From: an uncultured Verrucomicrobiae bacterium
Lineage (GTDB): Bacteria; Verrucomicrobiota; Verrucomicrobiia; Chthoniobacterales; Terrimicrobiaceae
NCBI GenBank assembly: GCA_963706955.1
Contig: CAVPOC010000008.1
Location: forward strand, 832,001-896,000
Length of the DNA: 64,000 nucleotides
Reading direction: 5' to 3'
Positions 29,901-33,964 of this stretch are shown one piece after another (positions within the stretch are counted from its first letter, which is position 1; each line of letters begins with the position of its first letter). The position numbers were made by a program, and so were the translations under genes. Below the pieces are notes generated by a model, which was given only the letters and a program-made list of their open reading frames with translations, had not been told where the DNA came from and did not search any database.

Positions 29901-30869
29901 TTATTGCCAATAATTGGGAATGACACCCAACCCTTCGATGGTTGGGATATCCTTCCCTTCCAGCCTGCGGGCGAAGATCGCTAGCTTAGCAAAGAAGTCT
30001 TCCAGGATAAACCGGGTATCCACGGACGTGTAAACTTTAATGGGACGGTACTTGCCGGTGTGAACGTAGTTCATTTCAGCGTTTAACTCGGGGGCGGGTC
30101 GCCATTCCGACCAACCGCTCTCGGGATACATGATCACGCCAACTACAGGCGAGTCTCCCAAGGAACGATGCTCGATGCCATCGAGCGGATACCACGGAAA
30201 GTTTACCGCCGAGGCTCGTTTGTTCCAGTCGATCAACTGTTCCACCAGATACTTGCCGAGAGGTCCCTTGTCATAGACTTTCTCCGCCAATTCGGCATAG
30301 CTCACGGGCAACACTTTGTAGAGCGTGCTCGGAACTTGCCATACCTCTACCTTAGAACGGAAAACCACATTCGCAGATCCCACATCGTTCCACAGGTTGT
30401 ACTCAAATCCACCAACCGGCCATTCCCCTCCACCAATCCAGACCACGCGCACGTTTCGCTCGGCAATTGCGGGTTCCAAGAGCAGCGCAGAGGCCATGTC
30501 GGTCAGCGGACCGAGAAATGCCACGTGCAAAGGACGAGGATCATCTTTCAACGCCTCCTCGATGATAAATCTGGCTCCGGGCGAATCTACGGGAGTCTTT
30601 TCATCGGGAAGTGCAGTCGGCGCACCCGCATGAAGCGGAATCTTTCCGGTCAACTTCATCAAGTCTAAGATCTTTAGGACCTCGTCGTGACTGTCCTGCT
30701 GGCTGGTTTTCGAGATTCTCTGTCCGAAATGCGCGGGAATAATCCCGTGAAGCTCGAACATCGGCGTCAGGATGGCATGGACAATGGCATACTGGTCGTC
30801 GGCTTCATTCTTGGCATCGGTGTTGATGATGACCCGTATCCTCTTGGAAGGGAGAGATGAGGTTGGCAT
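29901..30869 (-). CDS. Nucleoside-hydrolase-fold (IU_nuc_hydro) enzyme, atypical subfamily
   Basis: INTDAKNEADDQYAI (variant Ca-binding motif), LGPLTDMASA, VWIGG, EYNL, LGDSP. Confidence 0.85.
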   Translation of the reverse strand: MPTSSLPSKRIRVIINTDAKNEADDQYAIVHAILTPMFELHGIIPAHFGQRISKTSQQDSHDEVLKILDLMKLTGKIPLHAGAPTALPDEKTPVDSPGARFIIEEALKDDPRPLHVAFLGPLTDMASALLLEPAIAERNVRVVWIGGGEWPVGGFEYNLWNDVGSANVVFRSKVEVWQVPSTLYKVLPVSYAELAEKVYDKGPLGKYLVEQLIDWNKRASAVNFPWYPLDGIEHRSLGDSPVVGVIMYPESGWSEWRPAPELNAEMNYVHTGKYRPIKVYTSVDTRFILEDFFAKLAIFARRLEGKDIPTIEGLGVIPNYWQ

Positions 30870-30874
30870 AAGCT

Positions 30875-31723
30875 TTACTTGACGGCACCAGCCATTCCAC
30901 TGACGAAATAGCGTTGGAAGAACAGAAAAACGATAATCACCGGCACCAAGGAAATGAGAACCGCGGCGGCCAATTGATTATATTCAGTCGAAAACTGAGT
31001 GCTGAAGTTCACCAGACCCAACGGAAGCGTCCGCAATTCATCCGAGCGCAGAAAAATCTGCGCCAGAATAAATTCGTTCCACGTCGCGACGCCATCAAGA
31101 ATGCAGAGCGAAAGGACCGCCGGTAAAGCAAGCGGAAGCGCGATCTGGAAGAAGATCCGCCAATAGGAACATCCATCAATCTTGGCGGCCTCGATCAACT
31201 CTGTCGGAATCGTCCGAAAGAATCCCCGCATGATCAAGACTCCGAAGGGAACACCGAAGCCTAAGTAGAGCAGGGTCAGACCGGTGCGAGTATCGATCAG
31301 ATTCAAGGCGTTCATTATTATCGTTAATGGCACAAGCGCCATCTGGATCGGAACGATCAAGCCGAGCAGAATCAGGATAAATACTTTGTTTGCCCATCGA
31401 AAAGGAATGTGAGTCAAGGCAAATGCCGCCATCGCTTCGATAACAACTCCGAGCGGCACTTTGATCGACGCTATGATGACACTATTCCAGAAATAGTCCT
31501 TAACACCGGTATCCCAGGCATCACTGAAATTCGACCAGGCAATGGACGTGGGAATGGCGAGGGCGCCGTGGATGGCAAAGTCCCCAGCGCTCTTTAGCGC
31601 CGTAAACACGAGCATGACAATCGGCGCAAACCAGATTACCGCCGCAAGACTCAAGGCAACATAAAAGAAAACCAACAGGGTGCGCTCTCGACGCTCCCTT
31701 ATGCTAATGCTGGCTGAGCTCAT
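30875..31723 (-). CDS. Oligosaccharide (CUT1) ABC permease, MalG-like
   Basis: EAA loop IPTELIEAAKIDGC; WNEF; RTLPLGL. Confidence 0.92.
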   Translation of the reverse strand: MSSASISIRERRERTLLVFFYVALSLAAVIWFAPIVMLVFTALKSAGDFAIHGALAIPTSIAWSNFSDAWDTGVKDYFWNSVIIASIKVPLGVVIEAMAAFALTHIPFRWANKVFILILLGLIVPIQMALVPLTIIMNALNLIDTRTGLTLLYLGFGVPFGVLIMRGFFRTIPTELIEAAKIDGCSYWRIFFQIALPLALPAVLSLCILDGVATWNEFILAQIFLRSDELRTLPLGLVNFSTQFSTEYNQLAAAVLISLVPVIIVFLFFQRYFVSGMAGAVK

Positions 31724-32641
31724 CAACTCCTTCCCATTATCCGCACATACGGGATGGCGAATATTAGCGTCAGCAGGAAAAGAATGACGGCGATGGCCGT
31801 TCCTTGCCCAACCGAGTTGTAATTGTATGTCATGAAGTACATCCAAGTGCTGAGAACCTGAGTCTGATTGGCAGGTCCGCCGTAGGTCATGGCATAGATG
31901 ATATCATACACCTTCAGCGAGTTGATCGCCGTGAGCGCCAGGACGATAAGAGTTGTTTCCCGCAAGAGCGGAAAGGTGATGGAAAAGAACCGACGCACCG
32001 GTCCAGCCCCATCGACTTTCGCCGCCTCCAACACCTCTGGATTGATGGTCTGCAGTCCGGCCAGGTATAAAAGCATCGGCAGTCCGGTGGCATTCCACGT
32101 CGCGGCAAGCATGACGGCATAGAGCGCGAAATTGGGGTCTGATAGCCAATTATGCTGCAAGCCAGTTAGGCCAAGCGCGCCCAGGATCTGATTGATGAGG
32201 CCGATATCAGGGAGATAGATCCAATTCCAAATTAGCCCGACAATGGCGAGCGAGAGGATGGCCGGGAAATAGAACACGCTCCGAAAGATGTGGCTGCTCC
32301 GGAACTTTTGGTTCAAGAGCACGGCCAATCCTAAGCCGATGCTGGTTGGAAGAAGAAGAGACGCCACCAGCCAGATCGCGTTGTTTCGCAAGGCGATCCA
32401 AAACACGGGGTCATTCAGCAAAAGCGTCAGGTAGTTTTGCAGCCCAACAAATTGCTTCGTCGGCGAAACGCCATCCCATTTGAAGAAAGCTCAAATAAGC
32501 CGAGTAGACCATCGGATAAACGACCACGATGACGTAGATCGTCAGAGCAGGCGCAAGAAACAGCCAGGGAAGCAGCCAGGCCAGACGCTTGCCGGGGCTT
32601 ACAGCGTGCAGTTCTCCCGTGGAGGTCGGTGCAGCCACCAT
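31723..32641 (-). CDS. Oligosaccharide (CUT1) ABC permease, MalF-like, frameshift near 32480
   Basis: N-part WLFLAPAL..YPMVYS in ORF 32411-32650; C-part YLAGLQTINPEVLEAAKVDGA. Confidence 0.85.
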
Positions 32642-32666
32642 GTTTGCCAAGCTTTCTAAGCGATCT

Positions 32667-33964
32667 CTACTTATTCGCGGCCTTATACGCGTCGACTGCC
32701 TTCTGAATACTTTCCGCCGCAGCTTCGGGAGTCATTTTCCCGAGAACCACCGAGTCCTGGGCCTGGAAAAAGGCATTGACGAGCTCCTGAGGCAACGCCT
32801 GGTCAGTCGGAAGATAGAGTTTAGCTTCACCCCCGATCCACTTGGCCATCTTCGTCGCTATAGGGCGATCGGCCGGGGGCTCCATTCCGAGGACCGCCCG
32901 AGGAGTGCCGATTACGTTCGCCAGTTTGTTCGCCACCTCTGGCTGGCTTATGTATGCGGCAAACAAGAGCGCCGCCTGTTGAACTTCCGGCGGCGACTTT
33001 GACGAGATCTGAAGCTGCTCTTGAAAGCCGGAAACCCTTACCGGCGTCTGGTCCGCTGGAGCAATGATGGCTACATAGTCATTCGGGTCGAGTTTCGATT
33101 TGATGATGTTCTCTCCCTCGATCCAGGGTCCCTGAAAGATCATCCCAGCCTTATCTTGGAACAACATCGGCAGGGCCTGGTTTGGATCGATCGAGATAAA
33201 ACCGTCGTTAAAATAGCCCTTATCGACCCACTCCTTGAGCTTGGCAAAGGCTTGGACGACCTCGGGCGAATTGTAGGATGCCTCCAAGGCGAAGAGCTTG
33301 TCATGCGTCTCCGGACCAGCGAAGTGTTCGATGAGAAAGTCCGTCGTGCGCATTGTCATCCAACTAAATTTGCCTCCGACCGCGATGGGAGTTATCCCTT
33401 TGGACTTCAAAGTCTCCATTGCCTTCTCCAGGTCGGCAAACGTCTTCGGCTCCGGTATTCCGTTTTTGTCAAATAAGCTCTTCTTGTAGAAGATAGTCAT
33501 CGGCCTTACCCAGATCGGAACGCCGTAGAGTTTTCCATTGTGCTTGGCCAGATCCAGGGCAATTGGGCTGATGTTTTTGTCGAAGCCATATTTGGCGGCT
33601 ATCTCCGGGGTTATCTCTAATGCGTGGCCTCCCTCAATGTAAGGACCTGCAAGACTTCCTCCCCAGTTAAACCACATGTCCGGCATTTTGCCGGAGGCGG
33701 AAGCGACCCGGAGCGCCTGCTTGAGCTCATCCGTGCTATATTTGGTCCATTTAATCTCGATATTCGGATAAGCTTTTGAAAACTCGGCGATGACTTCCTT
33801 CCACGGCTGTGTGGCGATCGCCCAGAACTTGACGGTGACTTTGCCCTCAGGAGGTTTCGGCAAACCTTCCGGCGCTTGCCCGCAGCGCGCTGGTGGTGAT
33901 AGCCCGGAGCCGCGAACAACATCGCGGCTACAAGGAGACGAAAGAGGCGTTTTAAGGGGTTCAT
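32667..33964 (-). CDS. CUT1 extracellular solute-binding protein (SBP_bac_1), frameshift near 33870-33900
   Basis: Signal peptide MNPLKRLFRLLVAAMLFAA in another frame; body GKMPDMWF, GKLYGVP, IFYKKSLFDK, AGMIFQGPW. Confidence 0.87.

Follow-up and report, generated by a model that had tools for sequence, protein, structure and literature searches.

Why should an importer operon of the oligosaccharide type, lying amid genes for D-apiose catabolism, end in a gene of the nucleoside hydrolase (NH) fold? The question is raised by positions 29901-33964 of a 64,000-nucleotide stretch of DNA from an uncultured Verrucomicrobiae bacterium, hereafter the window, to which all position numbers refer; the genome that it belongs to (G000) comprises 4.16 Mb and is 92.5% complete. 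In plants, apiose occurs bound, in rhamnogalacturonan II (RG-II), in apiogalacturonan, and in small glycosides. From the comparison of this NH-fold gene with its relatives, we consider it very probable that its product has a role in the apiose pathway; that this role is the hydrolysis of apiosides is a narrower reading, to which we give an even chance. The operon consists of four genes:

32667-33964, minus strand: CUT1 solute-binding protein (SBP), with its ATG at 33964 and a frameshift in the signal peptide at about 33882-33901 (PF01547, 111 bits)
31723-32641, minus strand: CUT1 permease of the MalF type, with a one-base frameshift at about 32489 (tblastn, in two frames)
30875-31723, minus strand: CUT1 permease of the MalG type (PF00528, 77 bits)
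29901-30869, minus strand: NH-fold protein of 322 residues, motif NTDAKNEADD (PF01156, 70 bits; PF07632, 35 bits)

The stop codon of the first permease gene overlaps the start codon of the second at 31723 (TGA/ATG). With an SBP_bac_1 binding protein and two MalF/MalG permeases, the operon has the composition of a CUT1 importer; it holds no ATPase gene, the genome having several MalK-like genes in other places. The top matches of its SBP in the PDB (4g68, 3vxb, 7eho, and 3zkk, with E from 1e-34 to 1e-22) bear names that are mostly oligosaccharide-binding, and a crude hydropathy check detected no signal peptide in the NH-fold protein.

Apiose genes around the relatives of the NH-fold gene

A scan of GTDB confirmed 307 relatives of the NH-fold protein, and the locus counts given here are for the best 80 of these 307. 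Around each NH gene, apiose-type markers were counted within 10 kb with query sequences from the window and from the clade loci, a stricter set of markers being formed by ApnL, ApnO, OiaK, OiaX, OiaC-type proteins, an apiose-type SBP or DUF2291, and proteins like those of glycoside hydrolase family 140 (GH140). The 40 control loci, of which 31 belong to a sister clade and 9 to more distant NHs, came from a 301-genome sample of the phylum, where no close clade member was found besides that of the window's genome. An apiose-type marker accompanies the NH gene in 58 of the 80 clade loci, in 38 of the 47 that span at least 15 kb, and, on the strict markers, in 43 of the 80, versus none of the 40 control loci; when the control loci were searched without identity thresholds, no marker appeared either, save one FGGY kinase at 25%. 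Fisher's test of clade versus control loci gives p = 3e-16, a value that is overstated because the loci are related, and kinship among loci and genomes inflates the other counts as well. Co-location of the homologs with apiose genes had been set as the test of the apioside reading when the locus was first described, and with 58/80 clade loci against 0/40 controls it was passed.

This apiose context extends over Verrucomicrobiota (21/27 loci), Pseudomonadota (16/20), Chloroflexota (12/18), Spirochaetota (3/3), Bacillota (1/2), and unlabeled loci (5/5), and is found in none of the loci from Latescibacterota (0/3) and Actinomycetota (0/2). Among clostridial loci, those of the sister clade have no apiose-type marker (0/13), one of them (L144) carrying a split transketolase at 43% and 33%, just below threshold; two of the six that belong to the clade itself carry a transketolase module, in one case together with a GH140-like gene. 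Genes of the oxidative route alone accompany the NH gene in 15 clade loci, those of the transketolase/isomerase route alone in 34, and both in one; because clade loci carry either route, the step in question lies upstream of both. We also considered a lactonase role and rejected it as unlikely, since 34 loci hold only the non-oxidative route.

The clade is also coupled to importers. The NH gene directly follows a CUT1 permease gene in half of the loci (40/80), an SBP of the window's type is present in 36 of the 80, and other loci carry two further CUT1 types (6 and 3 loci) or an Opp-type system (6 loci). In Microvirga ossetica (NH-fold protein WP_099514496.1), for instance, the genes run oiaX-oiaK-apnO-SBP-permease-permease-NH, all on one strand.

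At the level of whole genomes, ten were examined in which the NH gene has no catabolic neighbors: five of them carry an ApnL-like gene elsewhere, two have ApnO next to an apiose-type SBP, and in one (L131) a second pair of clade genes adjoins a transketolase module. Among 61 relatives of the window's genome, an apiose-type SBP is present in 14, including all seven of those with an NH match of at least 74%. The NH gene is therefore accessory, nested within the apiose users and not part of their core, as 7 of the 14 SBP-positive relatives carry an NH match. Among 400 genomes sampled from the class to which G301 belongs, the background of ApnO is 2/400, and no clade member was found at E 1e-60.

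Fold and putative active site of the protein

That the protein has the fold of the NH structural superfamily is indicated by its profile match (PF01156, 70 bits against a cut-off of 34.2) and by its AlphaFold (AF2) model, built from a 91-row alignment with a confidence (pLDDT) of 93.6. Foldseek matches this model to NHs (E 1e-15, TM 0.7), and VIA-align does so at Z 26-30 (best 30.1), with a root-mean-square deviation of 2.4-2.5 Å over about 270 residues and an identity of 13-23%; XopQ (Z 24.1) and Sde_0182 (Z 22.1) come next, before a fall to 8.8, and the identity to any solved structure does not exceed 23%. The PF07632 match (35 bits) covers only profile positions 1-134 of 268 and comes without PF21027, which places the protein outside the DUF1593/Sde182 family, and it is no GH140 enzyme either, since it has no PF13204 match and its model resembles the NH fold instead.

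In the preliminary description, made from the sequence letters, the operon was taken for a CUT1 transporter ending in an NH-fold gene, which the PF01547, PF00528, and PF01156 matches bear out, and the metal motif was read as DAKNEADD in place of the canonical one. The motif is indeed present, but it is no like-for-like substitute: compared with the DxDxxxDD fingerprint, the stretch N-T-D-A-K-N-E-A-D-D has Asn for the first Asp (in 91% of clade rows) and two inserted residues. FastTree groups the 93 clade rows into a single branch (support 99), and across them D18, E22, D24, D25, T123, E156, and N158 are invariant (100%) and D239 nearly so (98%). At the sequence level, D18, D25, D239, and T123 align with the canonical Ca2+ ligands of NHs (three Asp and a Thr carbonyl), and E156/N158 with their Glu/Asn ribose binders, so that the protein may bind Ca2+. 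Clade-specific residues include K20, H47, D124, Y184, E233, and R235, and five basic residues are widely kept (K20 99%, H47 98%, R235 87%, H270 92%, and R286 97% of clade rows).

What surrounds this site differs from known nucleosidases. Just before the last Ca2+ Asp, NHs of groups I, II, and III have His, Trp, or Cys (PMC8910321); the residue before D239 is Gly in 99% of clade rows and Trp in 93% of 45 sister rows. The base-binding (beta3-alpha3) loop has 21 residues in all clade rows versus a median of 39 in 9 outgroup rows, hence is some 18 residues shorter, and the region of the loop whose Val/Ile-His contacts the base in group I NHs is a gap in the alignments to the NHs of the PDB. The NCBIfam models for RihA, RihB, RihC, and UriH give 26-40 bits against cut-offs of 382-459. 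Databases name the protein nucleoside hydrolase or purine nucleosidase, as does, automatically, the ESM Atlas (nucleoside hydrolase). Judged by these features, it is not to be classed as a Rih-type nucleosidase, although its metal site probably operates in the same way.

Three NH-fold proteins are its closest points of comparison. The group I NHs (PF01156; Rih and the IU-NH of C. fasciculata) share the fold and the Ca2+ Asp/Thr and Glu/Asn positions, whereas the window protein is at most 23% identical to them, has two extra motif residues, Gly for His, and a loop about 18 residues shorter, and stands in an apiose context. The C-terminal domain of Sde_0182 (2YHG, DUF1593/PF07632) has the NH fold as well (Z 22.1) and likewise stands in a carbohydrate context; in its motif, too, five residues separate the first Asp from the DD, and it is reported inactive on nucleosides (PMC8910321); the window protein is 20% identical to it, lacks the beta-sandwich domain, and is nearer to PF01156. 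Finally, RusNH of B. thetaiotaomicron (BT2808) is also an NH with an extended motif, active on 4-nitrophenyl (pNP) ribofuranoside and weakly so on nucleosides, but unlike the window protein it is periplasmic and lies in a ribose locus with ribokinases (10.1101/574913). Among the distant hits of the window protein, some at 35-40% identity have DNDFxGDPD, a motif consistent with the one described for RusNH.

Two side observations concern the relatives of the protein. Second or tandem clade paralogs within one locus occur in L048, L051, L055, L131, and L135, several with DAKCEADD and with Trp for R235, and L055 also holds a DUF1593 gene, which brings three NH-fold genes together. The sister clade (L081-L111, L136-L148), a separate uncharacterized NH subfamily, is frequent among Verrucomicrobiota and Clostridia; its motif is DTxNE[IV]DD, its last Asp is preceded by Trp, it has no apiose context, and a ribokinase lies nearby in 8/44 loci.

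Proposed function and competing explanations

Both routes share the step, it goes together with oligosaccharide importers, and not every apiose user has it; the simplest role for the clade is therefore to free apiose from apiosides brought into the cell. The operon would then be an accessory front end of D-apiose catabolism, whose CUT1 system, with an ATPase encoded elsewhere, would import a small apiose-containing di- or oligosaccharide or glycoside, such as apiosyl-galacturonate from RG-II or apiogalacturonan, apiobiose, or apiosyl-glucose. In the cytoplasm, the NH-fold protein would hold the O2/O3 cis-diol of apiofuranose on Ca2+ via D18, D25, D239, and the T123 carbonyl, and the relocated hydroxymethyl by E156/N158 and clade-specific residues; a metal-bound water would cut the beta-apiofuranoside bond with inversion of the anomer, and the released apiose would enter either the oxidative (ApsD-ApnL-ApnO) or the transketolase route. 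E22, H47, D124, and E233 are candidates for the acid catalyst, and the conserved K20 and R235 hint at an anionic aglycone; we infer both the ligand of the CUT1 SBP and the bond that is cleaved.

In chemical terms, beta-D-apiofuranosides have the same cis-2,3-diol and 1,2-trans aglycone as ribosides, the hydroxymethyl being on C3 and not on C4, and no CAZy family is known to use the NH fold. In NHs, Ca2+ holds a furanose by its O2 and O3, a metal-bound water attacks C1, and IU-NH efficiently cleaves an O-glycoside, 4-nitrophenyl riboside (PMC8910321). The reaction proposed here is that of the GH140 beta-D-apiosidase BT1012 (PF13204), which cleaves Apif-beta-1,2-GalA (apiofuranosyl-galacturonic acid) in RG-II (10.64898/2026.03.13.711244) and to which the window protein is unrelated in sequence and fold. 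As for the steps downstream, bacterial catabolism of D-apiose and D-apionate is reported to follow one transketolase route and three oxidative routes; these start from free apiose or apionate, and neither a CUT1 importer nor an NH-fold gene is described in them in the sections consulted (PMC13753588). The island shares with the described clusters ApsD-, ApnL-, ApnO-, and OiaC-type genes, beside which it carries a split transketolase and an FGGY kinase. A full-text search, which most subscription papers, including the 2018 pathway paper, fall outside, found no publication linking the NH fold to apiose, and none of the papers it returned for apiosidase or apiofuranosidase deals with this fold, to judge by titles and abstract openings.

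Several points weigh against apioside hydrolysis. An apiose-type marker is absent from 22 of the 80 clade loci and from 4 of the 6 clostridial ones; genomes G305 and G306, the other two of the ten examined above, gave no ApnL, ApnO, apiose-type SBP, or close transketolase with the queries used, and G656, which has a 54% NH match, lacks the apiose-type SBP. In several loci (L014, L026, L049, L060, and L073), core catabolic genes adjoin the NH gene and no transporter of the oligosaccharide type was seen, and some loci already have a strong GH140 (398 bits in L054, directly behind the NH gene; 236 bits in L041). The transketolase/FucI/FGGY module, moreover, is assigned to apiose by context. With regard to mechanism, canonical NHs are very slow on 5'-deoxy substrates (PMC8910321; PMC12648331), and since apiose has no hydroxymethyl on C4, the NH pocket must have been rebuilt; a sugar aglycone would need an acid catalyst, for which the four residues named above are candidates only; and XopQ and Sde_0182, which keep the metal site without the His, are reported to be inactive on nucleosides and possibly binding modules (PMC8910321).

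The same co-location data would be obtained if the protein belonged to the apiose pathway and hydrolyzed some other derivative imported by the CUT1 system, whether a phosphorylated one, such as the apiose 1,2-cyclic phosphate that arises by decay of UDP-apiose, or an apiosyl N-glycoside or ester. The conserved K20, H47, R235, H270, and R286 could bind phosphate, and the NH scaffold of XopQ binds ADP-ribose (PMC8910321). However, the solved relatives of the SBP are mostly oligosaccharide binders, and the GH140-like neighbors indicate O-glycosides; we judge such a substrate unlikely, if worth keeping in mind.

Nor need there be any glycoside cleavage: the protein could bind free apiose and either speed the interconversion of its anomers or ring forms, like a mutarotase, or sequester it, and so feed ApsD or the isomerase. 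It is consistent with this that the clade alignment lacks a recognized leaving-group activator, that in some loci the NH gene sits beside transketolase, kinase, and isomerase genes without an oligosaccharide transporter, that a true GH140 can co-occur, and that Sde_0182 has been proposed as a furanose-binding module (PMC8910321). The accessory spread of the gene (7 of 14 SBP-positive relatives) speaks against it, as do the stand-alone CUT1 and NH operon of Inquilinus-type genomes, whose catabolic genes lie elsewhere, and the tandem paralogs (DAKCEADD; L048, L051, L055, and L135), whose different pocket residues favor several substrates. We find this role quite improbable.

We think equally little of an atypical riboside or nucleoside hydrolase, for which the CUT1 system would import nucleosides or ribosides and promiscuous neighboring enzymes would take up the ribose. 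Its database names, and the fact that all strong structural matches are NHs, would suit it, and RusNH, with its similarly extended motif, has weak and broad nucleosidase activity (10.1101/574913); ApnO oxidizes D-ribonate as well (PMC13753588), and the monosaccharide SBP of the island matches PDB entries named ribose SBP. Yet ribokinase-like genes occur in 0/80 clade loci versus 8/44 sister loci, no nucleoside-salvage gene recurs among the annotated neighbors, the Rih/UriH scores fall an order of magnitude below their cut-offs, and neither the base-binding loop nor the His/Trp/Cys that precedes the last Asp is retained.

It is, lastly, very improbable that the protein cleaves a different linkage (that of another RG-II furanoside) in imported apiose oligosaccharides and leaves the freeing of apiose to GH140 or DUF1593, for although GH140-like genes lie beside 16 of the 80 clade loci and DUF1593 is found in 9, no catabolic genes for another RG-II sugar recur among the annotated neighbors, and by established chemistry the Ca2+ site suits a furanose with a cis-2,3-diol, that is, apiose, unlike arabinofuranose.

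If apioside hydrolysis by the NH-fold protein is the right explanation, the clade, perhaps with the DUF1593 proteins of the same regulon, would form a family of its own, of O-glycoside hydrolases on the NH fold that need Ca2+ and invert the anomer. Alongside GH140, it would be a second, unrelated means of releasing apiose, coupled to an importer of oligosaccharides that contain apiose and with paralogs adapted to different aglycones; we find this wider proposal as easy to believe as to doubt. In bacteria of the soil and rhizosphere without GH140, it would account for the import of bound apiose and its release, the step so far missing; it would show the NH fold redeployed as an O-glycosidase and make available, for the analysis of RG-II and for work on aroma and flavonoids, a small apiosidase of the cytoplasm. 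It would also point to a wrong annotation, as purine nucleosidase, for a widespread clade. Clade homologs exist in cultured Microvirga, Inquilinus, Kaistia, and Cohnella, and the protein, of about 300 residues, is described as soluble.

The apiose island and its regulon

The genes of the island that bear on apiose, together with a decayed copy of the NH gene, are the following:

13248-15019, plus strand: transketolase split into N and C genes, which by context resemble AptA/AptB (PF00456, PF02779/PF02780)
19560-21029, plus strand: FGGY kinase, AplK-like or erythrulose kinase by context (PF00370/PF02782; passes the GlpK subfamily model)
21381-22907, plus strand: second NH-fold gene, of the DUF1593/Sde182 type, motif TDIGNEPDD (PF07632, 351 bits, and PF21027; 2yhg, 299 bits)
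23148-23300, minus strand: decayed 3'-end copy of the NH gene (78% identity over 147 nucleotides; 70% amino acid match)
35968-37014, plus strand: Gfo/Idh/MocA dehydrogenase of the D-apiose dehydrogenase (apsD) type (PF01408)
36890-41483, plus strand: DUF2291, CUT2 ATPase, permease, and monosaccharide SBP, of the apiose-uptake type (PF10054)
46468-47313, plus strand: apnO (PF16896, 161 bits)
47382-48221, plus strand: oiaC-type decarboxylase, TIM barrel (JGI cluster names)
48435-50310, plus strand: apnL-like gene, split over two frames (NF049900, 225 and 68 bits, under the cut-off of 750)

The island thus carries ApsD-, ApnL-, ApnO-, and OiaC-type genes, as identified by PF16896, by NF049900 below its cut-off, and by the names given by JGI to members of 90% clusters: among the members listed, 9 of 15 are named D-apiose dehydrogenase for the apsD-type gene, one D-apionate oxidoisomerase for the apnO-type gene, and 8 of 15 3-oxoisoapionate decarboxylase for the oiaC-type gene. 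The split transketolase and the kinase, like the isomerase of other clade loci, match no curated model of the characterized enzymes (AptA/B, AplK, and ApsI) and have generic names (transketolase, for the split one), and are tied to apiose by co-location with the apiose-type SBP and DUF2291; by this context, the split transketolase and the FGGY kinase are candidates for the apulose route. The best PDB match of the monosaccharide SBP is 5ibq/4ry0 (396 bits), listed in the PDB as probable ribose SBP; 5ibq reportedly holds apiose.

A search for words shared by 13 intergenic regions gave a common core, and a 34-bp matrix was then trained on five sites. Scanned over the 4.16-Mb genome, its top six matches all lie within the island, with scores of 30-45, the next score being 23:

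33997-34030, minus strand: before the CUT1 operon, the best-scoring match genome-wide
21306-21339: before the DUF1593 gene
35911-35944: before apsD
46374-46407: before apnO
51520-51553, plus strand: before the gene at 52286 for a transporter of the major facilitator superfamily (MFS), the sixth-best match in the genome and outside the training set
57337-57370, minus strand: before the CUT2 SBP at 57256

With each training site left out in turn, 5, 5, 6, 6, and 11 genome positions score at least as high as the omitted one, a count that includes the training sites and the site itself; the site before the CUT1 SBP, when omitted, ranks fifth, behind the four training sites alone. The site is conserved in the related loci L001, L002, L038, and L172, and two unrelated loci (L102 and L143) have weak matches (18-21). 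Because it is a direct repeat with a period of 21 bp, its form suggests an AraC-type activator, and AraC genes are present in the island at 11464 and 50307. Two other signals were looked at: the palindrome GACCAG-N5-CTGGTC at 33983, which we rejected as the regulon motif (it occurs once in the window and in 3 exact copies in the genome, and is altered in L001), and sigma-70 sites, of which a scan of 29500-36100 found one, fewer than the shuffle mean of 4.6. Beyond the island, three weaker matches (22-23) fall before a CUT2 operon, in or near ABC (ATP-binding cassette) ATPase genes, and in fusA; the top one (G000:C3:457709, minus strand, score 23.4) precedes the CUT2 operon, which encodes a sugar ABC system and may be a remote part of the regulon.

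The preliminary description had ascribed a full regulon motif to the operon, in agreement with the six best matches of the genome all falling in the island, and had recognized no glycoside hydrolase there, which holds for the proteins scanned by profile: no glycoside hydrolase family matched among 25 island proteins, the ABC ATPases and most permeases being covered by BLAST or by eye, and PF13204, the GH140 apiosidase domain, had no match in the genome at its 92.5% completeness. It made no mention of the second NH-fold gene, DUF1593 at 21381-22907, whose product has no signal peptide, which has the same regulon site upstream, and which is a second candidate in the island for the apiose-releasing job. 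Relatives of this DUF1593 gene on metagenome contigs have apiose-type markers in 7/80 loci and in 5/31 loci of at least 8 kb, mostly those of its closest relatives, and the closest of all (about 70% or more) adjoin an NH clade gene and FucI-like and transketolase genes. The DUF1593 and NH genes stand tail to tail in L001, L002, and L038 and are separated in the window by a 6.4-kb stretch (23300-29750), which blastn finds missing from these close relatives. It is bounded on one side by the remnant of the NH 3' end (23148-23300) and on the other by 81 nucleotides duplicated from the DUF1593 3' end (29670-29750), and contains an ATP-grasp gene, genes for membrane proteins, fragments resembling WD40, and an orphan open reading frame of 407 residues.

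The frameshifts in the operon SBP and MalF-type permease are probably assembly errors, since the extra base at 32489 is missing in contigs from three of four sequencing runs and that at 33882 in contigs from two of four, and the start of the SBP is uninterrupted in the related loci L001 and L002. Other one-base frameshifts affect apnL (48435-50310), the AraC gene (50307-51260), and a metallo-beta-lactamase-fold gene (34167-35001), where the extra base at 34473 is missing in contigs from three of four runs; many assembly indels in the window are therefore probable. The GTDB loci closest to that of the window are from Verrucomicrobiota, at 83-95% identity. As evidence of expression, we considered RNA run X17 and rejected it (11 of 30 bins covered, by short contigs of mixed identity, mainly over the SBP gene).

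Three further families recur beside the clade. An L-fucose-isomerase-like gene (L006:10918-12336 and 23 other loci), found in 24/80 loci together with the apiose-type SBP, the FGGY kinase, and the split transketolase, is likely a non-orthologous D-apiose isomerase; it is also present in Chondrinema (L122) and was not found in the window's genome. Proteins of the architecture DUF5060-Apiosidase-like-DUF5605, with weak PF13204 matches of about 70 bits (L063:7994-9904, L054:7353-8906, and L135:13643-15244), recur in Alphaproteobacteria, Chloroflexota, and Clostridia and probably form an uncharacterized GH140-related subfamily. Finally, a PF01370 NAD-dependent epimerase/dehydratase found in seven loci (L040, L051, L054, L062, L066, L068, and L074) might be an alternative D-apiose dehydrogenase, an uncharacterized example of which is mentioned in PMC13753588.

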